From: Terriglobia bacterium
GTDB taxonomy: Bacteria > Acidobacteriota > Terriglobia > 20CM-2-55-15
Length of the DNA stretch: 64,000 bases
Assembly: GCA_965198265.1 (NCBI GenBank)
Contig: CBDAPB010000032.1
Location: forward strand, 2,557-66,556
Reading direction: 5' to 3'
In this document: positions 1,856-37,597 of the stretch, piece by piece
Layout of the letters: the number at the start of each line of letters is the position of its first letter
Position numbering within the stretch: the stretch's first letter is position 1
Notes under the pieces: generated by a model
Told to the model about the DNA's origin: nothing
Seen by the model: the letters and a program-made list of their open reading frames with translations, nothing else
Database searches by the model: none
Program-made: the position numbers and the translations under genes

Positions 1856-3400
1856 CTAGGAGTCTGCGCGGCAGAGCGCGAAGAACTCGAATTTATTGGG
1901 ATTTGAGAGGGTCTTCGGAGGAGAACCCATCGATTCTTCCGATACGAGGAGTTCAGAGCTGTACGGATACCAGTAATTGGCCGTGTATCGGGTCTGCTGG
2001 GTTCCGGTTTTCCGGATTATGCCCATTCGATCATCCCGTTCATCCGCCGTAAGTTCACCGCCAGAGTGAGCAGGTTCCACTCACCGGTCACTTTGTCCAA
2101 ACCGCGTAGACTGAACTGTCGGAATCCGAGCACCGACTTGATCCACCCGAAGGGCGGCTCGCCAATGTGCTTTCTGGCCCGGTAGCGGTCGCGCCCACGC
2201 TTGGTTTTCATCTTTCTCATCATCCGGCCAACAGCAGTGTCTTTGGGTGGGAGTGGAACATCGGCCAGATTCTTCTCGCGACCCATGGCAACATACCCGT
2301 CAATCTGACGTTGTTCCAACATCCCTAGATTCGACTCGGATCGATATCCCGCATCGGCCAGTACACGTTCGGGATGCTCTCCCAGGTTGTTGTTCAACGC
2401 ATCCAGGGTCGGTTCCAACTGTCCCGCGTCGGACGCATTGGAACTCACCGTTGTCGCTACGATGATCCGGGCCTCGGAATCCACCACCGCCTGCGCGTTG
2501 TAGCATTGCTGGAACCCTTCAGTGGAGGTTTTCATGATCCGGCTTTCCGGATCTGTGAAGTTGTCCTGGGCCGTCGGTTTGGGCTCGCCCATGGGGCGTT
2601 TGAATGGCTTCTTTCCGCATCCGGGTTTGTCGTCTCCCGGTTCCCGTCCCGCTTCCTGGTCCGCAGCCATCTGACGTTCTTCGAGCCGTTTCATTGCTGC
2701 CTGGATCGTGGCCAATCGCTTTTTGCGGGTCGACAACCCATCGGGCAGTTCGTCTCCGCGCCGGTCCTTGCCGTATCGCTGGTCTTCTTCCTCATCGGTC
2801 GCCGTAGCCCGGTTCAACAGATCCCGAATCTGTTCGCCCAATTCGGTCTCCTGCTTCTTCATCCGTTCATAGCTCATCGCTTTGCGTTTGCTCGCATTCG
2901 CCCGCATCTTGGTTCCGTCCACCGCCACGGTTCCCATCTTCACCAGTCCCGCTTCCCGCGCCATCATCACCACTTGCACAAACAGGTTCCCGAACTCCTC
3001 AAGATGCAGTTTGCGAAAATCCGAGATCGTACGGTGCGCCGGAAAGTTCTCCGCTCCCAACATCCGGAACGCCACGTCGTCGGTCAACTTCGCCGCGATC
3101 TTCCGCGACGAGAACACCCCGGTCGCGTACCCGTAGATCAACACCTTCACCATCATCCGCGGATCGTACGCTTGATTGCCCGGTCCGTCCGTTCCATACC
3201 GCTGCTCAAACGCGCTCAAATCCATGGCGTCCACCGTGTCCGATATGAAGTACGACAGGTGATCTTCGGCCAACCAATCTCTCAGCGACGGCGGCAGCAG
3301 CAGGCTCTGTTCTGGGATATAGGTTCGATATGTTCGTGACATGTCCTATCTTCGATCTCTATCCGCCCAATTCCGGTCCTTCTGCCGCGCAGACTCCTAG
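1856..3400 (-). mobile_element. IS1182-family-like insertion sequence, 1545 bp
   Basis: CTAGGAGTCTGCGCGGCAGA at 1856-1875 is the perfect reverse complement of 3381-3400; the 17-bp core is exact and the inverted repeat extends to 20 bp. These repeats bracket the transposase ORF. No obvious target duplication is visible. Confidence 0.75.
2017..3342 (-). CDS. IS1182-family (IS5 superfamily) DDE transposase
   Basis: The 441-aa ORF contains recognisable IS1182-type motifs (VKVLIYGYATGVFSSRKIA, AVDGTKMRANASK, AVVDSEARIIVATTVSSNASD) and is flanked by terminal inverted repeats. Confidence 0.8.
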   Translation of the reverse strand: MSRTYRTYIPEQSLLLPPSLRDWLAEDHLSYFISDTVDAMDLSAFEQRYGTDGPGNQAYDPRMMVKVLIYGYATGVFSSRKIAAKLTDDVAFRMLGAENFPAHRTISDFRKLHLEEFGNLFVQVVMMAREAGLVKMGTVAVDGTKMRANASKRKAMSYERMKKQETELGEQIRDLLNRATATDEEEDQRYGKDRRGDELPDGLSTRKKRLATIQAAMKRLEERQMAADQEAGREPGDDKPGCGKKPFKRPMGEPKPTAQDNFTDPESRIMKTSTEGFQQCYNAQAVVDSEARIIVATTVSSNASDAGQLEPTLDALNNNLGEHPERVLADAGYRSESNLGMLEQRQIDGYVAMGREKNLADVPLPPKDTAVGRMMRKMKTKRGRDRYRARKHIGEPPFGWIKSVLGFRQFSLRGLDKVTGEWNLLTLAVNLRRMNGMIEWA

Positions 3401-3406
3401 CCCCTC

Positions 3407-5050
3407 ATGCCCAGCATCACGCTCAACGGTCAGGTCTACGACGTCGAGGCCGGAAGAACCATCATCCAGATCGCAGATGAAGTGGGAGTCGAGATACCGC
3501 GCTACTGCTACCACCCCGATATCGGGATCGAAGGCAGCTGCCGGATGTGTTTGATCGAAGCCGAAGGCGCGCCGAAGCTGATGCCGTCGTGCGCAACCCC
3601 GGTCCGGGACGGAATGGTCGTCCGGAGCGACACCGAGCGCGTGAAGGAAGCGGTCCGGTACGCGATGGAATTCCTGCTCCTGCATCACCCCATCGACTGC
3701 CCTGTCTGTGACCAGTCGGGCGAATGCTTCCTGCAGGACTACTACATGGAACACGGCGGTCATGACAGCAGGTATCCGCTGGGTCAGAAGGAGAGGCGGC
3801 TCAAGGCATTCGACCTGGGACCACAGGTCAAACTGGACCGGGAGCGTTGCATCCTGTGTACCCGCTGCGTTCGGTTCACACGCGACGTCACAGAGACGGA
3901 CGAGATCCAGGTTTTCGGCCGCGGCCATAAATCCGAGATCGGTGTCTACGAGGACAAACCCCTGGACAATCCTTATTCGATCAACGTTGTGGATGTCTGC
4001 CCGGTCGGGGCCCTGACGAGTTCTGATTTCCGCTTCAAGGTGCGGTCGTGGTTCCTCCAGGGTACGCCGTCGGTATGCGCCGGGTGCAGCACGGGCTGCA
4101 ACCTCAGGATCGACCATTCGGCCCGGCCGCAGGGTGGGGGAGTTCCCGGCTATAGCGCGACGGATGGCCGGGTCTTCCGGACTGTCGGCCGCCGCAACAC
4201 CGAAGTCAACCGCAGCTGGCTCTGTGACGAGGGACGCCTGAGCTTCCATGCCCTGGAAAAGGGCACACGTCTGGTCGAAGGACGAGCGGGCAATCAGATA
4301 AAGTCAGTGGAAGGCATCCTGCCGGAAGTTCATCGCCGGTTCGAGGAAGTTCGAGCGAGCCACGGCGAGAAATCCGTCGCGGGGCTGTGTTCCGCAACGA
4401 GCACGAACGAAGCCCTGTTCCTGATGAAGCGGTATTTCAACGGCCACGTTGATTTCCGCCTGGACAACGAAGACACGACCTACGCCCGACAACAGGACGA
4501 CATGCTCCGACGCCTGGACAAACACCCCAACACCCGCGGGGCACTCGACCTCGGCCGAGATCCGGAACTGCACGGGCTGGAAGGGCTGTGCGAACTCGCC
4601 GAAGACGGACGACTCAAGGCAGTCTGGATTGCTTTTCATCCCCAACTGGTCGGAGAGGACTCCGAGAACATTGTCGGCAACCTCGAACGGCTGATCTCCG
4701 CCGTCGAGTTCAGCGTCGTGAGTACCACTCACGAACTTGGCTGGGCCGCCAAGGCCTCGGTGCTGTTACCGATAGCGGCATGGTCCGAGGAGCAGGGTAC
4801 CTACACGAATTACGCCGGCCGGCTGCAGATCACAAACCGCGCCGTGATGCCGCTGGGGGAGATTCGGCCATTGCACAGGATCATGGCCGAGTTGTTGAAG
4901 TTGCGTGGAGACGCCGCCGAAACGAAACCGTCGGAGACCTTCGCAGAGATCGCAAAGGCGGTCCCGGCCTATCGAGGCCTGGACTATGAAACGATTGGCC
5001 CGCTTGGCGCGATGTCGGTCGTTTCCGAGCCGCAGGAGGTAGTTGGATGA
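3407..5050 (+). CDS. nuoG: NADH-quinone oxidoreductase subunit G (short form, 547 aa)
   Basis: It has the N-terminal 2Fe-2S ferredoxin-like Cys cluster (CRMCLIE...C), the HPIDCPVCDQSGEC [4Fe-4S] motif and CILCTRCVRF. The start is 6 bp after the IS1182 right inverted repeat. Confidence 0.8.
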   Translation: MPSITLNGQVYDVEAGRTIIQIADEVGVEIPRYCYHPDIGIEGSCRMCLIEAEGAPKLMPSCATPVRDGMVVRSDTERVKEAVRYAMEFLLLHHPIDCPVCDQSGECFLQDYYMEHGGHDSRYPLGQKERRLKAFDLGPQVKLDRERCILCTRCVRFTRDVTETDEIQVFGRGHKSEIGVYEDKPLDNPYSINVVDVCPVGALTSSDFRFKVRSWFLQGTPSVCAGCSTGCNLRIDHSARPQGGGVPGYSATDGRVFRTVGRRNTEVNRSWLCDEGRLSFHALEKGTRLVEGRAGNQIKSVEGILPEVHRRFEEVRASHGEKSVAGLCSATSTNEALFLMKRYFNGHVDFRLDNEDTTYARQQDDMLRRLDKHPNTRGALDLGRDPELHGLEGLCELAEDGRLKAVWIAFHPQLVGEDSENIVGNLERLISAVEFSVVSTTHELGWAAKASVLLPIAAWSEEQGTYTNYAGRLQITNRAVMPLGEIRPLHRIMAELLKLRGDAAETKPSETFAEIAKAVPAYRGLDYETIGPLGAMSVVSEPQEVVG

Positions 5051-5694
5051 GCGGCCCCTACGCGGTCGATGTCCCTGTCATCAACGTCAGCGAGCGAGCC
5101 CGGCAAGAGCCCTCGCACTTCCTCCTGACGTTGCGCGCATTCGGAGTCACACTTCGTCACCTGTACCGGAGCCTCTTCAAAGGCGACCGTCCGACGATCG
5201 AGTACCCCGAACAAACCCGACAGTATTCGGAGCGCTTTCGCGGCACGCACGTCCTGACCGTCCGGGATGACGGCAGTCTCAAATGCGTCGCCTGCTACAT
5301 GTGCGCGACAGCCTGCCCCGCCGAATGTATCTACATCGACGCCGGAGAGCATCCGAATCCCGAGATCGAGAAGTTCCCGACCCGCTTCGACATCGACATG
5401 CTGCGCTGCATCTACTGCGGTTTCTGCGTCGATGCCTGCCCCGAAGAAGCCATCATCATGAGCCGGGAACACCATCAGACGGTTTACGAACGAAAAGACG
5501 CGCTCTATTCGATCGAACAGCTGATGGACCGGCCGGGCATCCACGAGAAAGGCCCCGGTTACCGACCCAGCGAACCTTTGATCCAGGCCAACGTCTACGA
5601 CGGCTCCAAGAACGTCTGCGACTACCCGTCGAAGGTGGAAGAACGCTACTCGCCGGTGTTGTACGAGTCGATGATTAAGAAGAGGGAAGGTTAG
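5047..5694 (+). CDS. nuoI: NADH-quinone oxidoreductase subunit I (2x[4Fe-4S] ferredoxin)
   Basis: Two CxxCxxCxxxCP motifs are present (CVACYMCATACP and CIYCGFCVDACP). It overlaps nuoG by ATGA, and there is no nuoH between G and I. Confidence 0.85.
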   Translation: MSGPYAVDVPVINVSERARQEPSHFLLTLRAFGVTLRHLYRSLFKGDRPTIEYPEQTRQYSERFRGTHVLTVRDDGSLKCVACYMCATACPAECIYIDAGEHPNPEIEKFPTRFDIDMLRCIYCGFCVDACPEEAIIMSREHHQTVYERKDALYSIEQLMDRPGIHEKGPGYRPSEPLIQANVYDGSKNVCDYPSKVEERYSPVLYESMIKKREG

Positions 5695-5727
5695 TAGTCA
5701 GTAGTCAGTTGCGAGTCGTCAGTCCCG
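5692..5727. repeat. GTAGTCA heptamer array ending GTCAGTTG
   Basis: The sequence ttagtagtcagtagtcagttgcgagtcgtcagtcc overlaps the nuoI stop. Confidence 0.5.
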
Positions 5728-5741
5728 AAGACGCTAATAAA

Positions 5742-5828
5742 CGGAGGAAGAGGGATTCGAACCCCCGGTGCCGTTTCCAGCACAGTGGTTTTCAAGACCA
5801 CCGCCTTCGACCGCTCGGCCATTCCTCC
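5742..5828 (-). tRNA. tRNA-Ser (anticodon TGA), 87 nt with long variable arm
   Basis: The minus-strand sequence is GGAGGAATGGCCGAGCGGTCGAAGGCGGTGGTCTTGAAAACCACTGTGCTGGAAACGGCACCGGGGGTTCGAATCCCTCTTCCTCCG. It has a 7-bp acceptor stem, anticodon loop CTTGAAA and T-loop GGTTCGAATCC. Confidence 0.85.
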
Positions 5829-6126
5829 GTAGGGGAAAGCATAGCATCTAAGATCGGTCGGTTTCTTTCAATGGACGAGTCAATTTACGAAACGCGTGTC
5901 TTGATCGACCGGGTGCCTCTGCGCGAGCGGTCTGCCGATCACTGCCGCCGTCGAAGTGGTGAAGTTGGTTTGAAGAACTGAAGGAACGGTGCGGCAGGGC
6001 TCGGCTGATTTCCCCCGGAAATTTCCCCAGAAGCTCCCGTATAGCCTTGTAGGAATTGGTAGGCCCCGGGGAATTTCATCCCGGGCCCCTCAGAGAACTG
6101 CAGGTAATCCACTCAAATCAGGGGAT

Positions 6127-6145
6127 GTGCGGTCATAGACCGCAC
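6127..6145 (-). terminator. short hairpin GTGCGGTC-ata-GACCGCAC downstream of ankyrin copy 1
   Basis: A perfect 8-bp stem sits 23 nt after the stop codon on the minus strand. No clear U-tract follows, so this is a weak call. Confidence 0.25.
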
Positions 6146-6167
6146 CTTCACCTGTTGAAGGCTGGCG

Positions 6168-8090
6168 CTATTTGGGAGGTGGCAGCGTTATGATCGCTCC
6201 CTCGAACGGCGGTACGCCGGCGCCCGCGCACCAGGCTCCGGTGCCACGGAAGTGGGTGTCGATACACCTGAACTCGGCGCCGAGGCTCAACATGTACTTC
6301 ACGGTCTCTGGCATCGGCGAACGACGATGGAATCCGGCTCCCCCGCCGCGGGCCATGTCGACCGTCGACTGGCCAAGCCGGCTGGTTGCGTGCAGATCGG
6401 CGCCTTTCGACAGCAGATAGTCGATGAGCTCGTGGTCGCCCCTGGCCGCCGCGTAGTGAAGCGGCGTGTAACCCCAGGAGTTGGGCACGCTGACGTCGGC
6501 GCCATGTTCCTCGACCAGGTACTTCACCGTATTGAAAAAGTTGTTCGGGATCTGCCGCATGTCGACGGCGACGAACCCCAGCCAACCTCCCCCCGCCGCG
6601 GCGTGTATGGGATACATGTTGGCCGTGCCCTTAGGAAACGGCGGCAGCCCGGAATCATCCGAGCCTCGCCCGTCCTCCTGCCGTGAGCCCCTCATGCCGA
6701 CCTCGTCCCACCGGGTCGGAGTGTTCGCATCGGCACCGTAGGACGCCAGCAACTTCATCGCCTCGATGTCCAGCGCGAAGGCGGCCCGCCAGAACGGGGT
6801 GAGACCGTTGACGTCGAGCCCGACGCGCCCGACGACGAATTCCCAGTACCACAGGTGTCTCGTGGTCGCCACGTTCGGGTCGGCGCCCGCCTCCAGCAGT
6901 GCTCGCAGCACGTCCATGTAGCCACTCTTCTGGTACTCGTGCGCCCGGGGCACCGGGTAACTGGTAAAGTTCGCCCACTGGGTCTGCAACACACCTAAGA
7001 GCGGTGCGACCCGGTCGGTGTGTGTGGCGAGGTTCGGATCCGCGCCGCGCTCGATCAGCACCAGCGCCAGGTCGAAGTGACCGTTCTGCACGGCACTAAC
7101 GAGGGGACTGCTTCCGTCGCCGCCGCTGATCTGGTTGATGTCGGCTCCAGCGTCCAGGAGAACCTCCGCCACTGCGATGTGGCCTTCGCGGGCCGCGTGC
7201 AGCAACGCCGTCAACCCACCCGTCTTCCCGACCAGGGTCTCAAACCACGGTCGTGCCAGGTACTCGACTTCGGTCGCCCTGTACTTTCGGCGGTTCGCCA
7301 CATCGTCGGGATGGAAGTCCACGAGCAACTTCTCGGTCGCCTCATCCGAGCGCAGGAACTCGCGCTGGGCGGCGATGGCCGCCTGCGCCTCCGTGGCGGT
7401 CAAAACCCCGTCCTCTCCCTCGGGAGAGCTCTCGAGGATCTCCTTCTGCGCCTCCTGGAGGCGTGCCTGCGCAGCCTGGTCGATGACCATTCTCTTCAAC
7501 ACATCGACGACTTCGGTGCGGATCGCCGTATCCGCGCCGTGACCGAGGAGTTCGCGGACCGACGCGGTGCGGCCGAACGACGCGGCAAACATCAACGGCG
7601 TCTGTCGGGCCGCGGCCTCCAGGGCATTCACGCTCGCGCCGTGCTCCAGCAGCACCCGAACCGTGCTCTCGCCCTCGAACGCTTTCGCGGCGAGGTGGAG
7701 CGGCGTCACGCCGCTGGCCGTCGTCACCGCGTTCGGGTCGGCGCCGGCCTTGATGAGCGCGCCGACGAGAGAGGACTTGCCAGCGCCGCTGGCGAGGTGG
7801 ATCGGCATGTAGCCGCCGAGGCGCGTCGTCGCCCCGACCTGGGCCCCCGCACCGATCAAGAGCCTAGCGATCTCGAGGTTTCCCGCCTCCGCCGCCATGT
7901 GCAGCGCGGTCAAACCGTCCCCCCGGGCCGCGTTCGGATCCGCTCCGTCGGCCAGAAGCGACCGGACGGCCGCCACGTCACCCCGCTTCGTCGCGTCCAG
8001 GAGCGGCAAGTCGGCCGCCGCAACGGTTCCGGTCAGCAGCGCGACCGCGAGGACCGCAACGGCCAGGCACGTCCCTCTTCCTGGGTTCAT
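6168..8090 (-). CDS. secreted ankyrin-repeat protein (copy 1, 640 aa)
   Basis: It has a signal peptide (MNPGRGTCLAVAVLAVALLTGTVAAA) and multiple ankyrin repeats (G-TALH-AA--G, PLH-A). It is about 98% identical to copy 2. Confidence 0.8.
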   Translation of the reverse strand: MNPGRGTCLAVAVLAVALLTGTVAAADLPLLDATKRGDVAAVRSLLADGADPNAARGDGLTALHMAAEAGNLEIARLLIGAGAQVGATTRLGGYMPIHLASGAGKSSLVGALIKAGADPNAVTTASGVTPLHLAAKAFEGESTVRVLLEHGASVNALEAAARQTPLMFAASFGRTASVRELLGHGADTAIRTEVVDVLKRMVIDQAAQARLQEAQKEILESSPEGEDGVLTATEAQAAIAAQREFLRSDEATEKLLVDFHPDDVANRRKYRATEVEYLARPWFETLVGKTGGLTALLHAAREGHIAVAEVLLDAGADINQISGGDGSSPLVSAVQNGHFDLALVLIERGADPNLATHTDRVAPLLGVLQTQWANFTSYPVPRAHEYQKSGYMDVLRALLEAGADPNVATTRHLWYWEFVVGRVGLDVNGLTPFWRAAFALDIEAMKLLASYGADANTPTRWDEVGMRGSRQEDGRGSDDSGLPPFPKGTANMYPIHAAAGGGWLGFVAVDMRQIPNNFFNTVKYLVEEHGADVSVPNSWGYTPLHYAAARGDHELIDYLLSKGADLHATSRLGQSTVDMARGGGAGFHRRSPMPETVKYMLSLGAEFRCIDTHFRGTGAWCAGAGVPPFEGAIITLPPPK

Positions 8091-8283
8091 ACGGCCCCCC
8101 TCGAATCCACCGACTCCCCGGGGAAGGTCACCGGGAACTCGCCCGTGCTGTCACCGAAGAATTCCATGTCGTCGTGTCCCATTCAGGGTGGATCCGATTG
8201 TCGCGTTGAGGTGGGAGTAGGGCGCTCTAGTGAGCGCCCTGTGTGCGGTCATAGACCACACCTACACCCGTTGAAGGCTGGCG

Positions 8284-10206
8284 CTATTTGGGAGGTGGTA
8301 GCGTTATGATCGCTCCCTCGAACGGCGCCACGCCGGCGCCCGGGCACCAGGCTCCGGTACCCCGGAAGTGGGTGTCGATACACCTGAACTCGGCGCCGAG
8401 GCTCAACATGTACTTCACGGTCTCTGGCATCGGCGAACGACGGTGGTATCCGGCTCCGCCGCCGCGGGCCATATCCACCGGCGTTTGGCCAAGCCGGCTG
8501 ACTGCGTTCAACTCGGCGCCCTTCGACAACAGGTAGTCGATGAGCTCGTGGTCGCCCCTGGCCGCCGCATAGTGAAGCGGCGTGTAGCCCCAGGAGTGGG
8601 GCACGCTGACGTCGGCGCCATGTTCCTCGACCAGGTATTTCACCGTGTTGAAGAAGTTGTTGGGCACCTGGCGCATGTCGACGGCGACGAACCCGAGCCA
8701 ACCGCCCCCCGCCGCGGCGTGTATTGGATACATGTTGGCCGTGCCCTTAGGAAACGGCGGCAACCCGGAATCATCCCCGCTTCGCCCGTCCTCCTGCCGC
8801 GAACCCCTCATGCCGACCTCGTCCCATCGGGTCGGAGTGTTCGCATCGGCACCGTAGGACGCCAGCAACTTCATCGCCTCGATGTCCAGCGCGAAGGCGG
8901 CCCGCCAGAACGGGGTGAGACCGTTGACGTCGAGCCCGACGCGCCCGACGACGAATTCCCAGTACCACAGGTGTCTCGTGGTCGCCACGTTCGGGTCGGC
9001 GCCCGCCTCCAGCAGTGCTCGCAGCACGTCCATGTAGCCGCTCTTCTGGTACTCGTGCGCCCGGGGCACCGGGTAACTGGTAAAGTTCGCCCACTGGGTC
9101 TGCAACACACCTAAGAGCGGTGCGACCCGGTCGGTGTGTGTGGCGAGGTTCGGATCCGCGCCGCGCTCGATCAGCACCAGCGCCAGGTCGAAGTGACCGT
9201 TCTGCACGGCACTAACGAGGGGACTGCTTCCGTCGCCGCCGCTGATCTGGTTGATGTCGGCTCCAGCGTCCAGGAGAACCTCCGCCACTGCGATGTGGCC
9301 TTCGCGGGCCGCGTGCAGCAACGCCGTCAACCCACCCGTCTTCCCGACCAGGGTCTCAAACCACGGTCGTGCCAGGTACTCGACTTCGGTCGCCCTGTAC
9401 TTTCGGCGGTTCGCCACATCGTCGGGATGGAAGTCCACGAGCAACTTCTCGGTCGCCTCATCCGAGCGCAGGAACTCGCGCTGGGCGGCGATGGCCGCCT
9501 GCGCCTCCGTGGCGGTCAAAACCCCGTCCTCTCCCTCGGGAGAGCTCTCGAGGATCTCCTTCTGCGCCTCCTGGAGGCGTGCCTGCGCAGCCTGGTCGAT
9601 GACCATTCTCTTCAACACATCGACGACTTCGGTGCGGATCGCCGTATCCGCGCCGTGACCGAGGAGTTCGCGGACCGACGCGGTGCGGCCGAACGACGCG
9701 GCAAACATCAACGGCGTCTGTCGGGCCGCGGCCTCCAGGGCATTCACGCTCGCGCCGTGCTCCAGCAGCACCCGAACCGTGCTCTCGCCCTCGAACGCTT
9801 TCGCGGCGAGGTGGAGCGGCGTCACGCCGCTGGCCGTCGTCACCACGTTCGGGTCGGCACCGGCCTTGATGAGCGCGCCGACGAGAGAGGACTTGCCAGC
9901 GCCGCTGGCGAGGTGGATCGGAGTGTAGCCGCCGAGGCGCGTCGTCGCCCCGACCTCGGCCCCGGCACCGATCAAAAGCCTGGCGATCTCGAGGTTCCCC
10001 GCCTCCGCCGCCATGTGCAGCGCGGTCAAACCGTCCCCCCGGGCCGCGTTCGGATTCGCGCCGTCGGCCAGAAGCGACCGGACGGCCGCCACGTCACCCC
10101 GCTTCGTCGCGTCCAGGAGCGGCAAGTCGGCCGCCGCAGCGGTCCCGGTCAGCAGCGCGATTGCGAGGACCGCCGCCCTCAGGCACGTCCCTCTTCCTGG
10201 ATTCAT
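8284..10206 (-). CDS. secreted ankyrin-repeat protein (copy 2, 640 aa)
   Basis: Same architecture as copy 1. Its start overlaps the DUF1552 stop (ATGA), so it is co-transcribed with the PSCyt pair. Confidence 0.8.
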   Translation of the reverse strand: MNPGRGTCLRAAVLAIALLTGTAAAADLPLLDATKRGDVAAVRSLLADGANPNAARGDGLTALHMAAEAGNLEIARLLIGAGAEVGATTRLGGYTPIHLASGAGKSSLVGALIKAGADPNVVTTASGVTPLHLAAKAFEGESTVRVLLEHGASVNALEAAARQTPLMFAASFGRTASVRELLGHGADTAIRTEVVDVLKRMVIDQAAQARLQEAQKEILESSPEGEDGVLTATEAQAAIAAQREFLRSDEATEKLLVDFHPDDVANRRKYRATEVEYLARPWFETLVGKTGGLTALLHAAREGHIAVAEVLLDAGADINQISGGDGSSPLVSAVQNGHFDLALVLIERGADPNLATHTDRVAPLLGVLQTQWANFTSYPVPRAHEYQKSGYMDVLRALLEAGADPNVATTRHLWYWEFVVGRVGLDVNGLTPFWRAAFALDIEAMKLLASYGADANTPTRWDEVGMRGSRQEDGRSGDDSGLPPFPKGTANMYPIHAAAGGGWLGFVAVDMRQVPNNFFNTVKYLVEEHGADVSVPHSWGYTPLHYAAARGDHELIDYLLSKGAELNAVSRLGQTPVDMARGGGAGYHRRSPMPETVKYMLSLGAEFRCIDTHFRGTGAWCPGAGVAPFEGAIITLPPPK

Positions 10207-11618
10207 GCCGCCCCCCTCGAATCCACCGACTCCCCGGGGAAGGTCACCGGGAACTCGCCCGTGCTGTCACCGAAGAACTCCATGTCGTCGTGTCCCATTC
10301 GATGCATCAGGGTCAGGAAGGCATTCGCCATCGGCGTCCCCCTCTCAGCCCTCAGGTGGAGGTTGCCCTCCAGCGCTCCGTTCGCGTGCCCCATCATCAG
10401 CAGCGGGCAGCGAATGTTGTTGTGGGGGTTCCCGTCCCCCATCGCCGAACCCCAGACGATGGCGGTCTTGTCCAGCAGGGAAGCGTCACCCTCCATCGTG
10501 TTCTTCAGCTTTTCTAGGAAGTACGCGAACTGACCCAGGCGGTACCGGTTGATCATGAGGTAGGCCATGATGCCATCGGGCGTGTTTCCGTGGTGCGACG
10601 CCGAGTGCCATGGTTTGTTCGTGCCGCTCTCGGGGAAGGTCATGCTCGAGCGGTCGGCTCCCGGCTTGAAGGTGATCACCCGCGTGAGGTCCGCCTGGAA
10701 CGCCACCAGCTGGAGGTCGAACATCAACTGCATGTGATCCTCCCACCGGTCGGGAACGCCTGAGGGCGCCTCCGGCATCGCCCGCTCCTCGCCGCTGTTG
10801 TTCTGCGCCTCGACCAGCTGGATCCTCCGCTCCATCTCGCGGATGTGGGTCGTGTACTGGTCCAGGGCCCGACGGTCGGTCGCACCCAGCTCCCTCTTCA
10901 GATCGGCCAGCTTCGTCCCGACCCAGTCGAGCAGGCTCCCGGTCGTCTGCCGCCGGGCGGCACGGTCCGCGGCCGAGTCACCGACGCCGAAGAGCTGCTC
11001 GAACACGGTCCTCGGATCGGCGATCGGCTGAAGCGGTTCGGTGGGACCCGCCCAGGCGATCGTCGTCCCGTACGCGCAGTGGTAGCTGTATTCGCAACCG
11101 CCGGGTCCCCCCAGCTCGGTCGTCAGCTCCAGCGAGGGCAACACCGTGTCCTGTCCGAAGCGGTCCGCATGGTACTGGTCCAGCGACTTCCCGAGGTAGA
11201 CAGCGCCCGACTTGCGCAGCGGATGGGCCTGGGTCAGGAACACCGCGGACGCGCGATCGTGGCCGCCGCCGATCTCGTCGGGCGTCAGGGAACTCGCCAT
11301 TCGGACGTCGGTATCGCTGATGACCGTCAGGTAGTCCCGGAACGACTCGAGGGGCTTCAGATGGCTGTCATCTATGAACTCGAAGTCGCGGCCGACCTTC
11401 GCTGGTGCGAAGAAGTGCCGCTCGTCACCCCACTCGTTGCTGCCCGCGCACCCCATCGACTCCTCGACGCCGATCAAGCGCGTGAACTTCTCCGCCGCGG
11501 GGTCTTGCCAGGCTCGGGCGGCCGGTACCATCGACTCCATGAACGGCAGCGCCACCATGACGCCGGCGCCCCTGAGAAAGGTCCGTCGGGGTATGTATTT
11601 TCCAGTGATGTAGGACAT
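10203..11618 (-). CDS. DUF1552-type protein with twin-arginine signal (partner of PSCyt/DUF1592 proteins)
   Basis: The N-terminus RRTFLRGAGVMVALPFMESM is a Tat-type signal. Its size (471 aa) and position directly downstream of a DUF1592-type gene match the conserved pair known from Planctomycetes and Acidobacteria. The family assignment is from memory, not from a search. Confidence 0.65.
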   Translation of the reverse strand: MSYITGKYIPRRTFLRGAGVMVALPFMESMVPAARAWQDPAAEKFTRLIGVEESMGCAGSNEWGDERHFFAPAKVGRDFEFIDDSHLKPLESFRDYLTVISDTDVRMASSLTPDEIGGGHDRASAVFLTQAHPLRKSGAVYLGKSLDQYHADRFGQDTVLPSLELTTELGGPGGCEYSYHCAYGTTIAWAGPTEPLQPIADPRTVFEQLFGVGDSAADRAARRQTTGSLLDWVGTKLADLKRELGATDRRALDQYTTHIREMERRIQLVEAQNNSGEERAMPEAPSGVPDRWEDHMQLMFDLQLVAFQADLTRVITFKPGADRSSMTFPESGTNKPWHSASHHGNTPDGIMAYLMINRYRLGQFAYFLEKLKNTMEGDASLLDKTAIVWGSAMGDGNPHNNIRCPLLMMGHANGALEGNLHLRAERGTPMANAFLTLMHRMGHDDMEFFGDSTGEFPVTFPGESVDSRGAA

Positions 11619-11651
11619 AGTCTGAGTCTCCTCAACGCTTGGGTGATGTGT

Positions 11652-14123
11652 TTAATTGCGGGCCGCTCGGTCCTCGGTCCCGGCCGGCTCCATTCGTTTC
11701 ATCTGGAATGCGTCGCTCTTCACCACTCCCAGGATGAAAGACGACATGTGATATTCGTTGGCTTCAGCCTCTCGGGTGATCGCGCGAATCGTCGGGTGGT
11801 CGAAGTACTCCACGGGCCGGCCGAGCGAATATGACAACAGGTTTTCCGTGAAGTGCCGCACGAGCGGGATCGGACGCGCGAGGAGCGCGCCGACGAGCTC
11901 GCCGGGCGTTCCGATCGGCGTACCGTCGTAGAAGTCGCCGCTCGTGTCGAGCGGTACCATGTTCTCACGGACCCGCCACCTCCCGGTGGCGTCGAAGCTG
12001 TCGAGCGCCAGGCCGATCGGGTCCATGAAGCGGTGGCAGGAGTTACACGCCGGGTTCTCGCGGTGTGCCTCCATCCGCTCGCGGGTGTTCAGAGGGCGGC
12101 CTTCTGCGACCGCCGGAGTATCCTCGAAAGCCGGCACGTTCTCCGGAGGCGGAGGCGGAGGCGACCCTAAGAGCACTTCCAGGACCCACTTGCCCCGCAG
12201 CACCGGGGACGTCCGGTCCGCCATGGAGGTCAGGTGCAGCACGCTCCCGTGGCTGAGAACGCCCCGCCGCCGTTCGTCCGGGTAGGCGACGCGGCGGAAT
12301 TCATCTCCGTAGATCCCCTCGATTCCGTAGTGCTGGGCCACACGCTCGTTGAGGAAGGTGTGGTCGGCGTCGAAGAGCTCGAACAGGGGCCGGTCCTCCT
12401 CGACCAGGTACTGGAAGAGCAGCTCGGTCTCCCGCACCAACGCGTCGGCGAGCTGTCCGGTGAAATCCGGAAAGAGATACGCTTGCGGCCAGATCTCCCC
12501 GACGTCCTCCAGCCTCAACCACTGATGCGCGAAACGGGTGGCCAGCGTCTCGGACCGGGGATCGGCGAGCATCCGCTCGACCTGCTGCTCGAGGACGGCA
12601 GGATTCGAAAGCCGGCCGCTCTCGGCGATCTCGAGAAGTTCCTCGTCCGGGACCGTGGCCCAGAGGAAGAAGGAGAGCCGCGTCGCGAGCTCGACGTCGC
12701 TCAGTCGATAGCTCTCACCCGGCCGGGCGCTCGCGGGCGCCCGCTCCAGGCGGAACAGGAACTCCGGCGATACGAGGATCGACTGCAAACCCTGCCGCAC
12801 TCCCAGTTCGAATCCTTCCTCAGCAGCCCCTTCGTCGTAGAAGTACAGCACGTCCGCCACGTCCTGCGGTGTCACCGGTCGCCGGTACGCCTGGGTCGCC
12901 AGCTCCGTGAGAATCGACTCGGCGCAGGGCCGCTCCTCGACAGGCGACGTCGGGCGGCAGGTGAAAATCTTCTGGCGACTCGCTGTCTCGGACACTCCCG
13001 ACACATTGCTGGGGCCGATGATCCACAGCTCGCTGAGGTGAGTCAGCCCGGTGATTCCGTACTGCTGGCTCGTAATTGGATGGGTGGCCGACCACCTCAC
13101 AGGACTGAACCGATCCTCGTACGGACCGTCGATGAGGTTGACGAACGCCGCCGCCACGCTGTGCTGGCCCGCACGGACGAAGATCGGCTCGGTCTGGATG
13201 CCGACCCGCGCCTCCAGGTCGGCCAGCAAAATGCCGACGTCATCACGCTTGCGCCCCCCTGCGTTGTGTTCGAGCATCAACAGGGCAACCCCCTCGCCGT
13301 CGATGGAAATGTCAAGATCCTCTACAGCCGTCTGATTCCCACTCCCCTGTTTGGTCTTCACCTGGAAGACGTATTCTCCGTCCGCGGGGAAGTCGTGCGT
13401 CACCACGATGCCACCCCTCGTCCCGAACGGCGCGCCTTCGAGCCGATCCCAGGCGTGCTGGGAAACCCGCTCCGGGTTCACGTGCTTGGTCGTGGCGGAG
13501 GCGGCCTCGGGGTTCCCGACAGCCAGCCGCGCAACCTCGGCGGCAGCTCTCAGAAACGAATCCAGGACCGTCGGCGAGAACGGCTGGGCGGCCGACTGGT
13601 TGTCGAAGGCGCCCATTAAAAGGTCGGCGGGGAGCCACTTCCCCGCATCCACATCCAGAGCCACCAGGTCGTGGATCACGCGCTCGTATTCGGCGCGACT
13701 GAGCCGCTGGAACCGATGCGCTCCTGGATCGGGAGCGGCCCGGGCCGCCTCGTCGAGGTTCGACTCCAGGGTCTCCACCAGCGCCAGGAGGGTGTCATCT
13801 GCGGGACGGCTCATGCCGGCAGGCGGCATCATCCCCAGCCGCAGCTTGGCGATCATCTTCTCGGCCAGCTCGGCGCTTTCCTCGACATGCGTGAAGTCCA
13901 GACCGGACATGGTCATGTTGCCGGCCATCTCGACGTCGTCGTGACAGTAAACACAATACTGGTCGACGATCGCCTGTTGGGACTCGGGGGACAACGGAAC
14001 GTCGTTCGCGCTGACCATGCCGACAGCGCTGTCTGTCGCCTGCTGTCCGGCAAGATTGATACCCGCCATGACGAGCAGACACAGGAATACTGCAGCCAGG
14101 GTGAAAGTGCCGCGTCTTATCAT
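11652..14123 (-). CDS. PSCyt / DUF1592-DUF1595-DUF1587-type protein with an N-terminal heme CxxCH motif
   Basis: The 823-aa protein has a signal peptide and the CVYCH heme-binding motif near the N-terminus. The architecture and the pairing with DUF1552 are typical of the Planctomycete-cytochrome-C family. Confidence 0.65.
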   Translation of the reverse strand: MIRRGTFTLAAVFLCLLVMAGINLAGQQATDSAVGMVSANDVPLSPESQQAIVDQYCVYCHDDVEMAGNMTMSGLDFTHVEESAELAEKMIAKLRLGMMPPAGMSRPADDTLLALVETLESNLDEAARAAPDPGAHRFQRLSRAEYERVIHDLVALDVDAGKWLPADLLMGAFDNQSAAQPFSPTVLDSFLRAAAEVARLAVGNPEAASATTKHVNPERVSQHAWDRLEGAPFGTRGGIVVTHDFPADGEYVFQVKTKQGSGNQTAVEDLDISIDGEGVALLMLEHNAGGRKRDDVGILLADLEARVGIQTEPIFVRAGQHSVAAAFVNLIDGPYEDRFSPVRWSATHPITSQQYGITGLTHLSELWIIGPSNVSGVSETASRQKIFTCRPTSPVEERPCAESILTELATQAYRRPVTPQDVADVLYFYDEGAAEEGFELGVRQGLQSILVSPEFLFRLERAPASARPGESYRLSDVELATRLSFFLWATVPDEELLEIAESGRLSNPAVLEQQVERMLADPRSETLATRFAHQWLRLEDVGEIWPQAYLFPDFTGQLADALVRETELLFQYLVEEDRPLFELFDADHTFLNERVAQHYGIEGIYGDEFRRVAYPDERRRGVLSHGSVLHLTSMADRTSPVLRGKWVLEVLLGSPPPPPPENVPAFEDTPAVAEGRPLNTRERMEAHRENPACNSCHRFMDPIGLALDSFDATGRWRVRENMVPLDTSGDFYDGTPIGTPGELVGALLARPIPLVRHFTENLLSYSLGRPVEYFDHPTIRAITREAEANEYHMSSFILGVVKSDAFQMKRMEPAGTEDRAARN

Positions 14124-14388
14124 TATTAGGTCGGCCTCCCTCAGATTCAGAGGTTCTTAGGGGATCGAAGATAAAGTCCGAGATCCTCTGCGTTTTTATC
14201 ACCATACGGCAGGTTGAGCAAGCAGAATCCGTACCCGTTTCCCTACACGGGGCGGTATTCGGGGATAGCAATTGTGACGGCGCCCTGATCCTTGAACGAG
14301 CCTTGAAGGAATCGAACCTTCAACCTGGTGATTACGAATGGGTTCTTGCTGACGACGCTCTTCCTGCTCCTGGAGAAAAACAGAGGCC

Positions 14389-15573
14389 TCAATTGACGTT
14401 CTCGACCGCCAGCGCGATTCCCATTCCACCGCTGATACAGAGAGTCGCCAGTCCGTAACGCGCGTCTCTTCGCCGCATTTCGTGGAGAAGCGTGGTCGTG
14501 ATCCGGGTTCCCGTACAACCGATCGGGTGGCCGAGAGCGATGGCGCCGCCATTGACGTTCAGTTTTTCAGGATCGACTGCCACCTCACGCAGGCAGGCGA
14601 GGACCTGGGCGGCGAAGGCCTCGTTGAGTTCGACCAGGTCGAAGTCGTCCAGTGACATGCCGGTCTTCGCCAGCAGTTTGTGGATCGCCGGAACGGGACC
14701 GATCCCCATGATCTTCGGGTCGACACCGGCGATGGCATAGTCGACAATCCGCGCCAGCGGTTCGAGGTCCCGCTTCTTCATTTCGTCTTCGGACACGAGT
14801 ACGGTAGCAGCGGCGCCATCGGTGATTCCGGACGAGTTCGCGGCCGTCACCGTGCCTTCCTTCGAGAAGACCGGCTTCAGTTTCGCCATGCCTTCAACGC
14901 TCGCGTCGGCCCGAATGTGCTCGTCGGCCTCGAACAGCAGGGTCTCGCCCCGCTTCTTCGGAACCGTCACCGGCGCGATTTCGGCGCCGAACCGTCCCGA
15001 TTGGCGCGCCTTACCGGCTCGGCTCTGGCTTCGGAGTGCGAACTCGTCCTGCTCCGCCCTCGAAATTTCATGGATTTCGGCGAGCTTCTCGGCCGTCCCC
15101 CCCATCACCATGTCGGCCAGTGGACACATAAATCCATCACGGTACATCCCGTCGACGAAATCCTGGTGACCCAACCGCAGACCCCAGCGCGCATTCTCGA
15201 CCAGATAGGGCACGCGGCTCATCGACTCCGTGCCTCCTGCAACGACGATACCGGCGTTTCCGAGCATGATCTCCTGGTAGCCCAGGATGATCGACTTCAG
15301 GCCCGAGCCGCAGGCCTGGTTCACCGTGTAGGCGGGCACTTCCTCCGGAATGGCGGAACGAACGCCGATCTGCCTGGCGGGGTTGGGGCCGTTGCCGGCC
15401 TGGCGGGCCTGCCCGATGATCACCTCCTCGACGTCCGAGGCTTCAACGCCTGCCTTCTCGAGCGCTGCCCCAGTGGCGACGATTCCCAGATCCACGGCGG
15501 TCATTCCGGCCAGGGTGCCGCCGAATCTCCCGATCGGGGTCCGCTGGGCAGACGCGATGTAAACGGATTTCAT
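14389..15573 (-). CDS. acetyl-CoA C-acetyltransferase (thiolase II)
   Basis: Thiolase signatures are present ([10 protein letters not shown], the C-terminal [11 protein letters not shown]... and CISGGMG). Confidence 0.9.
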
Positions 15574-16885: not shown

Positions 16886-16902
16886 GCAGCGTTGCTGCCT
16901 AG
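16882..16902 (+). terminator. hairpin CTAGGCAGC-gtt-GCTGCCTAG overlapping the VWA stop codon
   Basis: A perfect 9-bp stem is present, but an IS1380-like element is inserted directly after it where a U-tract would be expected. Confidence 0.3.
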
Positions 16903-18640
16903 CCCGCATATTTCACCAATAGGACCAGAAAAGGCCGCCCTGTCTGGCATAAAGCGTTTTGGAATAAACGTTTAACAAGCCAAACGGAGACGGCCCTGAT
17001 GAGAACAGAGTGTAACCAAGTCACGTTCGAATTTCACGGACTTCTTCAACGAAAAGTGAAGGCGCGTTTTGACGGCGGAAAGATCACCTCCGACGCTGGG
17101 GTTCTGCTGTTGCGGGAAGTGGAAAAGCGAACCGGGTTGATCGACGGACTGGCCCAGTGTTTTACCGATCACCGGGACCAGGGGTTGATCGAACACACGG
17201 TAAAGGAATTGTTGGGGCAGCGTGTCTATGGGCTCTGTTTGGGATATGAAGACCTGAACGATCACGACCAGCTGCGGACCGATCCGATGCTGGCCGTGGC
17301 AGTGGAGAAGGCCGATCCTTTGGGAGAGAGCCGACGCCAGGCCGGGGACCGGGGAAAGGCGCTGGCGGGCAAGTGTACGCTCAACCGGCTGGAGCTGAGC
17401 GGGGCTGAGGCCGATGGCCAGGAGCGGTACAAGAAGATCGTCATGGATGAGGACCGGATCGGGAGCTGGATGGTCGATGCGTTTCTGGCCGCCCACGACA
17501 CGGCACCGGAAGAGATTGTTCTGGACATGGACGCGACCGATGATCCGATCCATGGTCAACAGGAAGGCCGGTTCTTTCACGGCTACTACCGCCGCTATTG
17601 CTATCTGCCTTTGTACATCTTCTGTGGCGGACATCTGTTGTGCGCCCGTCTGCGCCGATCCAATATCGATGGTGCCGATGGAGCGGTGGATGAGTTGAAA
17701 CGTATCATCGGCCAGATCCGTCACGGCTGGCCGGAAGTGAGGATCATCATCCGGGCCGATTCCGGCTTTTGCCGGGATGAATTACTCCGTTGGTGTGAGG
17801 CCCATCAGCTCGATTACGTGATCGGGTTGGCCAAGAACGACCGTCTCAAGCGAGAGATTGCGGAAGAAATGACTCAGGCCGAAGGGGAGTTTAACACCAC
17901 CGGAAAACCGGCGCGGGTGTTTAAGGATTTCCAGTACCGGACCCTGAAGAGCTGGAGCTGCACCCGACGCGTCGTTGCCAAGGCCGAGTTCCTGGACAAG
18001 GGTGCCAATCCTCGATTCGTGGTGACCTCATTACCGACAAAACGCCTCGCCGCCCAAGCTCTCTATGAAGATTTCTACTGCGCTCGCGGTGACATGGAGA
18101 ACCGCATCAAGGAACAACAACTGGATCTGTTTGCCGACCGCACCAGCGCGGCGACGATGCGTGCCAATCAGCTCCGGCTGTATCTATCCTCAGCCGCTTA
18201 CATGCTCATGCATGCACTGCGTCGTCTCGGGCTCAAGGATACCCCGCTGGCCCGCGCTCAATGCCAGACCATCCGCCTGAAGCTTCTCAAGATCGGCGCT
18301 CGCATCCGCCTGACGGTCCGCAACGTCTGGCTCTCGATGTCGGAGGCCTATCCCTACGCCGAAGTCTTTGCGACCATCCTTCGCAACCTGCAGTCGATTC
18401 CTCTGCGGTGCTGACACAGGACCCCGATCCACGGCTCTAAAATAGACTTGTTTCTTTCTCCGACGGAGAGCTCTGCCTGACTACCTTATCCAGGCTTCCT
18501 TCAAACCCCAGAAACAAACCCACTCATGGCCAGCGACACCCTGATTGTCCCCATCCGTGCCTTACCGGAACCCAGACTCTCCCAACGCCCACTCTTCCGC
18601 ACGAAAACGCGCTTCATTCACGATTGGTGAAATATGCGGG
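16903..18640 (+). mobile_element. IS1380-family-like insertion sequence, 1738 bp, with 4-bp CTAG target duplication
   Basis: CCCGCATATTTCACCAAT at 16903-16920 is the perfect reverse complement of 18623-18640. CTAG occurs at 16899-16902 and again at 18641-18644. Confidence 0.8.
16999..18414 (+). CDS. IS1380-family DDE transposase
   Basis: The 471-aa protein carries the C-terminal motif YCARGDMENRIKEQQ and other IS1380-type blocks. Confidence 0.8.
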   Translation: MRTECNQVTFEFHGLLQRKVKARFDGGKITSDAGVLLLREVEKRTGLIDGLAQCFTDHRDQGLIEHTVKELLGQRVYGLCLGYEDLNDHDQLRTDPMLAVAVEKADPLGESRRQAGDRGKALAGKCTLNRLELSGAEADGQERYKKIVMDEDRIGSWMVDAFLAAHDTAPEEIVLDMDATDDPIHGQQEGRFFHGYYRRYCYLPLYIFCGGHLLCARLRRSNIDGADGAVDELKRIIGQIRHGWPEVRIIIRADSGFCRDELLRWCEAHQLDYVIGLAKNDRLKREIAEEMTQAEGEFNTTGKPARVFKDFQYRTLKSWSCTRRVVAKAEFLDKGANPRFVVTSLPTKRLAAQALYEDFYCARGDMENRIKEQQLDLFADRTSAATMRANQLRLYLSSAAYMLMHALRRLGLKDTPLARAQCQTIRLKLLKIGARIRLTVRNVWLSMSEAYPYAEVFATILRNLQSIPLRC

Positions 18641-18650
18641 CTAGTTCGTT

Positions 18651-18691
18651 CAGTAGTCAGTAGTCAGTAGTCAGTAGTCGGTAGTCAGTTG
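18651..18691. repeat. GTAGTCA heptamer array (x5) ending GTCAGTTG
   Basis: The sequence cagtagtcagtagtcagtagtcagtagtcggtagtcagttg supplies the stop codon of the first four-helix-bundle gene. Confidence 0.55.
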
Positions 18692-19032
18692 TCGGAACCG
18701 CTACTCGACAGAGCTCGGCGTAGCCCGGCCAGCATCTTTCGCAATTCCGCAGCCGCATCGCGGACCTTCTCAACTTCCCTGGCACCGCAGAACCCAAGCT
18801 CCTCGCTCAAGACAAGTTGTGTGTCGATTTCGGCAACGGAACCTTGAGCGCATGAAATGAAGCGAATGAATTCGCCCTTCTGGTGCCGGGCTTGACCTTC
18901 GGCGACGTTGGAAGGAATTGAAACGGCCGCCCGCCTCAACTGCATTACCAGGCCAAATCTCTCATGTTTCGGAAATCCGCCTGTAAGTTCATAGACGCAT
19001 TTGGCCAGTTCGACTGACTTCTGCCAAACCAC
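18685..19032 (-). CDS. four-helix-bundle protein (TIGR02436 / 23S rRNA-intervening-sequence protein family), copy 1
   Basis: It matches the family pattern (VWQKSVELAKCVYELTGGFPKHERFGLVMQLRRAAVSIPSNVAEGQAR). The track start is a GTG and the true start is uncertain. Confidence 0.7.
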   Translation of the reverse strand: MVWQKSVELAKCVYELTGGFPKHERFGLVMQLRRAAVSIPSNVAEGQARHQKGEFIRFISCAQGSVAEIDTQLVLSEELGFCGAREVEKVRDAAAELRKMLAGLRRALSSSGSDN

Positions 19033-19086
19033 CAGATCTCGATAGCTCTTCGGGAACGAACTAGGCAGTCGAACTGCCTTGTTCGT

Positions 19087-37430: not shown

Positions 37431-37597
37431 TTCGATTCGCGCGCACACTAGACGTTGCTCCCCACCGACACCAGGAGACCGCAAATTTAAACTGATGCTC
37501 GCCGCGTGTAAAGCGTTTACTTCGACTCGGCAAGAGATCGCCCTTTCCCTCCTGCCTGGAACCGGGGGAACAACCAGAGAGAGTCGACCACTATGGC

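Follow-up and report, generated by a model that had tools for sequence, protein, structure and literature searches.

Mosaic divergence of a tandem ankyrin-repeat gene pair in a conserved PSCyt3/DUF1552 operon of a Terriglobia bacterium

Here we describe an operon in a 64-kb stretch of DNA from a Terriglobia bacterium (the whole stretch is referred to as the window), in which all genes of the locus lie on the minus strand in the order PSCyt3/PSD, DUF1552, AnkU, and AnkD, the last two being tandem genes for ankyrin-repeat (Ank) proteins of 640 amino acids (aa). Our results favor, with a probability that we put at about 70%, the reading that AnkU and AnkD are an old pair kept partly identical by gene conversion within a conserved three-gene envelope module. 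The duplication itself is genuine, though of an ordinary kind; a messy rearrangement gave rise to it, and it is not recent. Of more use is the finding that a large PSCyt3/DUF1552 subfamily has the ankyrin gene as a conserved third member that appears not to have been described. The original prediction for this locus, that a recent duplication was amplifying an unusual ankyrin neighbor of the PSCyt/DUF1552 pair, was thus borne out in part.

Anatomy of the repeat and its junction

The features of the locus, with the basis of each assignment in parentheses, are as follows.

14187..14264, minus strand: conserved region upstream of the operon, putative promoter/leader (blastn and sequence comparison)
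11652..14123, minus strand: PSCyt3/PSD multidomain protein, 823 aa (Pfam, translation)
10203..11618, minus strand: DUF1552/HXXSHH protein, 471 aa (Pfam PF07586, translation)
8284..10206, minus strand: AnkU, upstream 640-aa ankyrin-repeat gene (open reading frame [ORF], Pfam)
6168..8090, minus strand: AnkD, downstream 640-aa ankyrin-repeat paralog, intact (ORF, Pfam)
8242..10300, minus strand: repeat unit copy 1, comprising the last 94 bp of DUF1552, AnkU, and 42 bp ending in a hairpin (self-comparison)
6126..8184, minus strand: repeat unit copy 2 (self-comparison)
8091..8184, minus strand: DUF1552 remnant, last 94 bp (self-comparison)
8185..8241, plus strand: junction filler, 57 bp, unique (homology to a permease 3' end)
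8243..8261, minus strand: hairpin with an 8-bp stem, GTGTGGTC-TAT-GACCGCAC, coinciding with the 3' breakpoint of the repeat unit (hairpin search)
6127..6145, minus strand: hairpin GTGCGGTC-TAT-GACCGCAC at the 3' end of copy 2 (hairpin search)
6712..7728, minus strand, partner 8828-9844: candidate gene-conversion tract (1 difference in 1,017 bp; 0 in a second assembly)

Self-comparison of the window showed a gapless direct repeat at an offset of 2116, in which 6126-8184 corresponds to 8242-10300; the coordinates predicted for the repeat, the two Ank ORFs, the DUF1552 remnant, and the junction proved exact. The copies share 96.6% of their DNA sequence (70 mismatches in 2,059 bp, no indel) and 96.9% of their protein sequence (20 differences, with no stop and no frameshift), somewhat less than the 98% first estimated, and their differing codons comprise 37 synonymous and 20 nonsynonymous ones. 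The AnkU ATG overlaps the DUF1552 stop codon (ATGA), as had been predicted. Within the DUF1552 remnant there is a mini-ORF of 31 codons (8182-8087). Its TGA overlaps the ATG of AnkD, and the native ribosome-binding and coupling context of the ankyrin gene is thereby preserved in the second copy as well; a gene caller also called this mini-ORF in locus L014.

The junction, although unique between the copies, is not the anonymous sequence that had been supposed. On the plus strand, 8185-8220 encodes RVDPIVALRWE and a stop, the same 11 residues that end an 808-aa MacB_PCD plus FtsX duplicated permease ORF in locus L003. The junction palindrome is present at 8219-8240 with 9-bp arms, AGGGCGCTC-TAGT-GAGCGCCCT, and a loop of 4 nucleotides instead of the 3 originally reported; it is the palindrome that stands after permease genes of this type. 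L003 contains three fragments similar to the filler, and one of these immediately precedes a dispersed operon copy (the B copy, described below). The 57-bp filler is thus a templated copy of a MacB/FtsX permease gene's 3' end. Two permease ends of L003 were rejected as the donor: that of the gene at 12031-14457 gives the best fit to the coding part (35/36 bases) and that at about 14820 fits the hairpin, and neither fits overall. No further triads or permease C-termini were found in the rest of the 64-kb window. The hairpin at 6127..6145 is followed by the ancestral downstream flank, which is common to the single-copy loci L001 and L101. A dispersed REP element was rejected as the identity of the boundary hairpin, which was found only at the two window copies, at orthologous sites, and at one related L003 copy.

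It is extremely unlikely that this arrangement is an assembly artefact in which two strain haplotypes were laid in tandem or a repeat was misexpanded. The data are metagenomic, with low coverage (the name of a twin contig says 5x), and a single-copy relative, L102, coexists in the same sample as a window-like contig, as such an artefact would have it. However, haplotype stacking would not create a DUF1552 remnant and a 57-bp permease fragment at the join, L102 is only 92% identical in Ank and thus the source of neither copy, and analogous tandem pairs occur in three other contigs. A second contig from the European Nucleotide Archive (ENA), ERZ25072076 ctg242576_5x_l (170.7 kb), has the same two copies and the same junction at 99.97% identity; with 3 substitutions and 1 indel over 14.6 kb, it is not byte-identical to the window. 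An artefact is unlikely because the differences between the copies respect codons, the join has a specific anatomy, and this second contig matches. Judging from their naming style, the contigs look like long-read metagenome assemblies.

Divergence of the two copies and their relationship to other loci

The differences between the copies are very unevenly distributed. There are 24 in 7729-8184 and 45 in 6126-6711, and a single one in the central 1,017 bp (6712-7728); a mismatch-free run of 804 bp has, at the mean density, a probability of about 1e-9. The lone central difference, at position 6924, is missing in the second assembly of the same population. Clustering of differences in the C-terminal repeats had been predicted, and the 45 at the 3' end agree with this, but a second cluster at the 5' end covers the signal peptide and first repeats. 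At the protein level, 8 residues differ in the signal peptide and first repeats and 12 in the last repeats and tail; residues 565-576, for example, read DLHATSRLGQST in AnkD versus ELNAVSRLGQTP in AnkU. With the differences confined to these two ends, AnkU and AnkD may present slightly different terminal binding surfaces.

Synonymous (dS) and nonsynonymous (dN) divergence between the copies was estimated by the method of Nei and Gojobori. The dS is 0.008 in the center, 0.11 in the N-terminal 125 codons, and 0.237 in the C-terminal 180 codons. The background dS between the window and L101, the nearest sampled relative, is 0.20 for thiolase, 0.245 for ferredoxin (Fer4), and 0.23 for the NuoG-like gene. 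Since the dS of the 3' third equals this genome-to-genome level (0.20 to 0.25), the identical center must be attributed to gene conversion, and the duplication is not recent. The overall dN/dS is 0.20, no segment exceeds 0.34, and the nonhomogenized regions lie between 0.15 and 0.34, values that indicate purifying selection on both copies. The window therefore holds two diverged, selectively maintained paralogs and not an amplifying array.

In a separate comparison, between the window and L101, DUF1552 (dS of 0.055) and PSCyt3 (dS of 0.105) are 2 to 4 times below the flanking genes and Ank (0.20 to 0.25), and dS is low, too, between the A and B copies of DUF1552 in a single genome (0.09); either conversion or unusually strong synonymous constraint could be responsible.

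Relatives of the locus were gathered by a genome scan with AnkU and by look-ups of close homologs. Three syntenic loci (L001, L101, and L102) carry thiolase, PSCyt3, DUF1552, and one Ank gene, with flanks that match the window on both sides, and L101 has the same ferredoxin, NuoG-like, rhodanese, and ABC genes downstream of Ank. This indicates that a single copy is ancestral at this locus, which we designate A. A second paralog lineage, B, is represented by L003 (= L099) and L002. In its locus, an upstream region matching 14187-14264 is followed by the final ~35 bp of PSCyt3, a complete DUF1552 gene, and an Ank gene; this locus is a dispersed operon copy that has lost PSCyt3. In L003/L099 it lies in a toxin-antitoxin-rich stretch, adjoining a MacB_PCD/FtsX permease gene. 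One genome probably carries both A and B, because L099 and L101 share sample and coverage.

Some further observations concern the B copy itself. At L003 6440-10053, DUF1552 and Ank stand directly after the retained upstream region (the putative promoter); the missing PSCyt3 suggests that DUF1552 and Ank can be retained without a cognate PSCyt3. The copy is flanked by a duplication spaced ~6 kb (L003 4493-5369 versus 10535-11268 and 6300-6440 versus 12005-12160) that consists of toxin-antitoxin genes and the 3' end of the adjoining permease gene, and the B segment thus seems to occupy the junction of a further tandem duplication. A perfect 54-bp tandem duplication (L003 11371-11478) lies in the intergenic or toxin-antitoxin region beyond the B locus, on its downstream side.

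Both lineages are represented in the window pair. Within the 3' third, 13 of the 45 sites that differ between AnkU and AnkD have AnkU agreeing with L001 and AnkD with both L003 and L002, and the opposite pattern occurs at 1 site. Neighbor-joining trees of codons 461-640 place AnkD with L002/L003 and AnkU with L001, whereas the window copies pair as sisters when the center or the N-terminal part is used. The 3' third of AnkU matches the A lineage (the syntenic L001), and AnkD matches the B lineage (L003 and L002) at ~6331-6687. The last ~150 bp of AnkD are again A-locus-like (97% identity to L001), and the adjoining flank, 6125-5735, aligns to L001.

These patterns make it very unlikely that one unequal crossover simply copied 2.06 kb in the recent past, as a first step of amplification, and that the 70 differences are later point mutations. 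The copies are head-to-tail and gapless, their overall identity is high, and the single-copy relatives make the pair lineage-restricted at this locus, all as expected of such an event. However, a simple tandem duplication would leave evenly diverged and abutting copies. Here, 1 difference in the center stands against 69 in the flanking 1,042 bp, the 3' third has diverged to the inter-genome background, and by 13 sites to 1 AnkD is tied to the B paralogs of other genomes, that is, to trans-specific alleles. Furthermore, the 57 bp of foreign, permease-derived DNA between the copies are not a product of clean unequal crossover, and there are just two copies, both of them constrained. High average identity is no date for a duplication.

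A different possibility is that AnkD is an ectopic B-locus copy (permease fragment, promoter, deleted PSCyt, DUF1552-B, and Ank-B) that landed after AnkU, lost the whole interval between the permease fragment and DUF1552 codon -31, that fragment included, and then had its 5' two-thirds overwritten by AnkU. The B-like 3' tract of AnkD, a B locus adjoining a permease that ends in RVDPIVALRWE, and a permease 3' fragment plus hairpin upstream of the L003 B copy, arranged and oriented as they are in the window, are all consistent with this. Nevertheless, we regard it as unlikely, since the extreme 3' end of AnkD and the flank beyond it are A-like, the hairpin and spacer of the window are unlike both L003 permease ends near the B locus, and the DUF1552 remnant is without B-specific sites.

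Other tandem Ank-Ank pairs after PSCyt3-DUF1552 occur in L016 and L017/L018, with junctions unlike that of the window: in these pairs the copies are separated by some 160 bp left over from DUF1552 and by at least ~200 bp of the downstream flank, and no permease-type C-terminus was found at the joins. The L016 pair is mosaic like that of the window, with a dS of 0.028 in the center and 0.14 to 0.20 at the ends. In L017/L018 (8001-9674), truncation has left the downstream copy with 557 aa, and its C-terminal branch is very long, indicating that some Ank duplicates decay.

The latter case bears on whether AnkD is a nonfunctional passenger, an unexpressed pseudogene-to-be that stays intact through repeated conversion from AnkU and not through selection. 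Such a fate would fit the absence of its own promoter, the hairpins upstream of it, the central tract being overwritten, and the truncated, fast-evolving C-terminus of the L017/L018 copy. Against this, the dN/dS of 0.15 to 0.34 is found in exactly those regions that have not been homogenized (dS of 0.11 to 0.24), AnkD has no stop or frameshift over 1,923 bp, and its translational-coupling context is preserved. We therefore consider a passenger role quite unlikely.

The ankyrin gene as third member of a PSCyt3/DUF1552 subfamily

The occurrence of an ankyrin gene next to the PSCyt/DUF1552 pair had been taken as unusual. We surveyed 80 metagenome loci whose DUF1552 is 53 to 85% identical to that of the window, scoring ORFs with hidden Markov models (HMMs) built from Ank and DUF1552 alignments, and found that the arrangement is the rule. 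Among the 72 loci whose sequence extends at least 200 bp beyond DUF1552, 71 have an Ank-family ORF directly downstream of it on the same strand, 35 of these 71 with a 4-bp NTGA overlap, and PSCyt3 lies upstream of DUF1552 in 69/69 loci with room upstream. All Ank relatives seen in genomic context, including those of Gemmatimonadota, stand directly after DUF1552. The triad occurs in Acidobacteriota (Terriglobia and 'Marinacidobacterales'), in Gemmatimonadota, and in many metagenomes. The ankyrin gene is thus a nearly universal, conserved third member of one large PSCyt3/DUF1552 subfamily, apparently undescribed. The proposal that an exported ankyrin protein is functionally tied to PSCyt/DUF1552 is strongly backed by this gene order and by the overlap in half of the loci.

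No Ank-only tandem pair was seen among the 80 surveyed loci, which indicates that this feature is confined to the Terriglobia clade of the window. Repeats of the whole triad do occur, convergent in L004 and L012 and in series in L053, L063, L064, L090, and L092; L088, where only a convergent Ank fragment is visible, is probably a further convergent triad repeat. In L013 (1037-5515), PSCyt3 and DUF1552 are separated by an insertion that comprises a gene for a TonB-dependent receptor (SusC-like) and another for SusD/RagB, a possible hint at a link to the uptake of a substrate imported through the outer membrane and the only functional hint that the context gives.

The PSCyt3 protein has the domain order PSD3-PSD5-PSD4-PSCyt3-PSD2, with every Pfam match above the cutoff, and an N-terminal hydrophobic segment. 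Its two CxxCH heme c motifs (CVYCH at 57 and CNSCH at 693) are kept at both positions in 58/58 near-full homologs, and it is thus predicted to be a diheme protein. The PSCyt and PSD domains reportedly go back to Studholme et al. DUF1552, encoded 33 bp downstream of PSCyt3, matches PF07586 at 1.6e-75 (255 bits) and has an RRTF twin-arginine motif at residues 11-14 that is invariant among homologs, HSASHH at 338-343, and conserved His/Asp clusters. In Foldseek, all top 50 Protein Data Bank (PDB) matches of its AlphaFold2 (AF2) model belong to the alkaline-phosphatase superfamily; the matches are weak (E of 6e-4 and TM of 0.33 to 0.36), and the fold resemblance serves as a lead only. A sequence search of the PDB with DUF1552 gave no significant match. 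Like members of that superfamily (S1 sulfatases, LtaS, YejM, and phosphonate monoester hydrolases), to which it is likened by this weak fold similarity, DUF1552 is predicted to be exported and has His/Asp clusters. Unlike the S1 sulfatases, which have an N-terminal C/S-x-P-x-R formylglycine motif, it has no such motif at its N terminus; its sole formal sulfatase-motif match, SAADR at 215, is misplaced and falls where the model has low confidence.

The Ank proteins match Pfam Ank at 1e-64 and Ank_2 at 1e-57. The AF2 model (pLDDT of 83.7) is an ankyrin solenoid with paired helices throughout and no catalytic domain, interrupted by a conserved helical insert of 100 residues (about residues 190-290). 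In Foldseek it retrieves only ankyrins and designed ankyrin-repeat proteins (DARPins), with ankyrin-R/B and DARPins as the top PDB matches, and thus gives no functional clue. The N terminus, MNPGRGTCLRAAVLAIALLTGTAAAAD, is Sec-signal-like, and residues 1-24 have low pLDDT; these motifs predict export through Sec for Ank and, by its twin arginine, through Tat for DUF1552. The cysteine pair Cys609/Cys621 is invariant, which fits an oxidizing compartment. In NCBIfam there is no specific model for the PSCyt3, DUF1552, or Ank protein, and only sub-threshold matches to generic ankyrin effectors were obtained; the best of these, considered for a kinship with the Legionella/Coxiella Dot/Icm ankyrin effectors, is AnkY (92 bits against a cutoff of 600), a similarity of generic repeats only. 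Some close Ank homologs carry a PF28177 match in the precomputed Pfam annotation, which may be a newly defined domain covering part of the Ank protein.

The adjacency of PSCyt3 and DUF1552 has been described before, with the function called unknown (He et al. 2017, PMC5615132), and DUF1552 has been reported as a stress-responsive secreted protein in Rhodopirellula (PMC2754498). The group III PSCyt (PSCyt3)/DUF1552 pair of the former study resembles ours in that PSCyt3 occurs with PSD4 and with PSD2, 3, and 5, in the adjacent DUF1552, in CxxCH, and in a predicted periplasmic location. In contrast to that pair, which is from the Planctomycetes-Verrucomicrobia-Chlamydiae (PVC) group, the subfamily of the window is found in Acidobacteriota and Gemmatimonadota and has an Ank protein of ~640 aa, predicted to be exported, as its third member, its gene often translationally coupled to DUF1552. 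In the literature found on DUF1552, DUF1592, PSCyt, or ankyrin plus PSCyt, there is no mention of an ankyrin partner.

With regard to a role for the Ank protein, we can name one analog only, AnkB of the katB-ankB operon of Pseudomonas aeruginosa. AnkB is a small protein. In the account of Howell et al. (2000) cited in PMC12754779, it is a periplasmic ankyrin-like protein needed for full activity of the KatB catalase. AnkB is an exported ankyrin protein, as the window Ank is predicted to be, and both have genes that lie directly downstream of, and in one operon with, a gene for a heme protein, and AnkB acts as an accessory factor and not as an enzyme. The two differ in that AnkB is paired with a catalase, whereas the window Ank is a 640-aa solenoid with a 100-residue insert, paired with DUF1552 and diheme PSCyt3; the likeness is one of description, and no homology is claimed beyond generic ankyrin repeats. 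No catalase domain was found in Pfam scans of the ORFs flanking the operon (thiolase, VWA, ferredoxin, NuoG-like, and transposases).

Proposed history, possible function, and genomic setting

We propose the following history. The locus would be a minus-strand envelope module of a diheme PSCyt3/PSD protein, a Tat-exported DUF1552 protein, and a Sec-exported 640-aa ankyrin solenoid, with a single-copy ancestor. A complex, non-clean duplication would have produced the second Ank copy. Its first breakpoint would lie 94 bp before the DUF1552 stop, so that the ribosome-binding and coupling context of Ank was carried along, and its second at the base of the hairpin 42 bp after the Ank stop, the join being filled by the 57 bp for which a MacB/FtsX-type permease gene served, at its 3' end, as the template. 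The age of the pair, as read from the 3' third, would approximate the split from the nearest sampled genome. AnkU and AnkD would since have exchanged sequence by conversion, leaving the center identical and the 5' part intermediate, and conversion would also have taken place with, or from, the second paralog lineage, B.

The pair can be compared with tandem paralogs in concerted evolution (bacterial tuf and rRNA copies and eukaryotic gene pairs), with which it shares a near-identical internal tract, diverged ends, and functional copies on both sides; it differs from them in the foreign filler at the join and in at least one third paralog lineage that gives alleles. If the proposed history holds, the window pair is a clean, small case of concerted evolution between bacterial paralogs.

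Several points weigh against this account. AnkU carries about 15 private or outgroup-like sites in its 3' third, and more than two donors may have been involved; taken with the B-like tract and the A-like 3' end of AnkD, these sites point to a history of at least two paralog lineages and several conversion events. AnkD is either an in situ duplicate that was later given a B tract or a B-derived copy whose 5' two-thirds were overwritten by AnkU. The permease paralog that donated the 57 bp was not found among the loci examined. AnkD lacks its own promoter, and two stable hairpins lie between the Ank copies, so that it might be poorly expressed. Finally, the AF2 model of DUF1552 is of low confidence (pLDDT of 58), and the survey covered DUF1552 proteins at least 53% identical to that of the window, with the planctomycete and verrucomicrobial DUF1552 loci falling outside it.

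Transcription of the operon can be addressed to some extent. The region 14187..14264 is also kept ahead of the PSCyt-deleted B copies in L003 and L002, and its role as a promoter is putative because no consensus sigma-70 site was found there. A promoter/terminator scan of 5600-14500 found no promoter-like site and gave terminator-like sites at the level of shuffled controls, and as such was uninformative. We infer that AnkD is cotranscribed with the operon.

With regard to function, the trio would form a periplasmic complex in which the ankyrin solenoid acts as a noncatalytic adaptor, a physical partner or scaffold of the DUF1552/PSCyt3 pair. More tentatively, PSCyt3-DUF1552-ANK could be a distinct and widespread periplasmic machine of Acidobacteriota and Gemmatimonadota, with Ank as an obligate subunit that docks the metalloenzyme-like DUF1552 protein to PSCyt3 or recruits a substrate. 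Repeated duplication of Ank alone (in the window, L016, and L017), in which conversion affected the core while the terminal repeats stayed divergent, might then have diversified partner or substrate specificity. We view this extension as a possibility short of an even chance.

Few gene pairs of unknown function are as abundant in the genomes of PVC bacteria, Acidobacteriota, and Gemmatimonadota as PSCyt/DUF1552 and the related PSCyt/DUF1501. That one large subfamily joins a third gene to the pair, for a translationally coupled ankyrin solenoid predicted to be exported, provides an experimental hook and points to a multiprotein periplasmic complex instead of a lone enzyme. If true, a three-component machine would be the first functional handle on a gene pair left unexplained since the Rhodopirellula genome.

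The neighborhood of the operon includes the following. Converging on the Ank genes at 3407-5694 (plus strand) are genes for a short NuoG-like protein (547 aa; Fer2_4, NADH-G_4Fe-4S_3, Fer4_Nqo3, and partial Molybdopterin) and a 215-aa 2x[4Fe-4S] ferredoxin, a pair conserved in L101. An insertion sequence (IS) at 16889-19051 (ORF 16999-18414, plus strand) encodes a DDE_Tnp_1_4 transposase (471 aa, 1e-160); it is an insertion relative to the syntenic L001, whose flanks are contiguous, and a transposase of this type also adjoins the B locus in L100. A second transposase gene at 2017-3342 (minus strand; DUF772 and DDE_Tnp_1, 441 aa), between the NuoG-like and rhodanese genes, has no counterpart at this position in the syntenic L101, so that an IS insertion lies on either side of the Ank locus. 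Farther away, at 28968-37658 (minus strand), a giant ORF of 2,896 aa combines CarboxypepD_reg, a beta-propeller (YNCE/lactonase-like), several IPT/TIG domains, and NHL/teneurin-NHL repeats, and its product is probably a surface protein.

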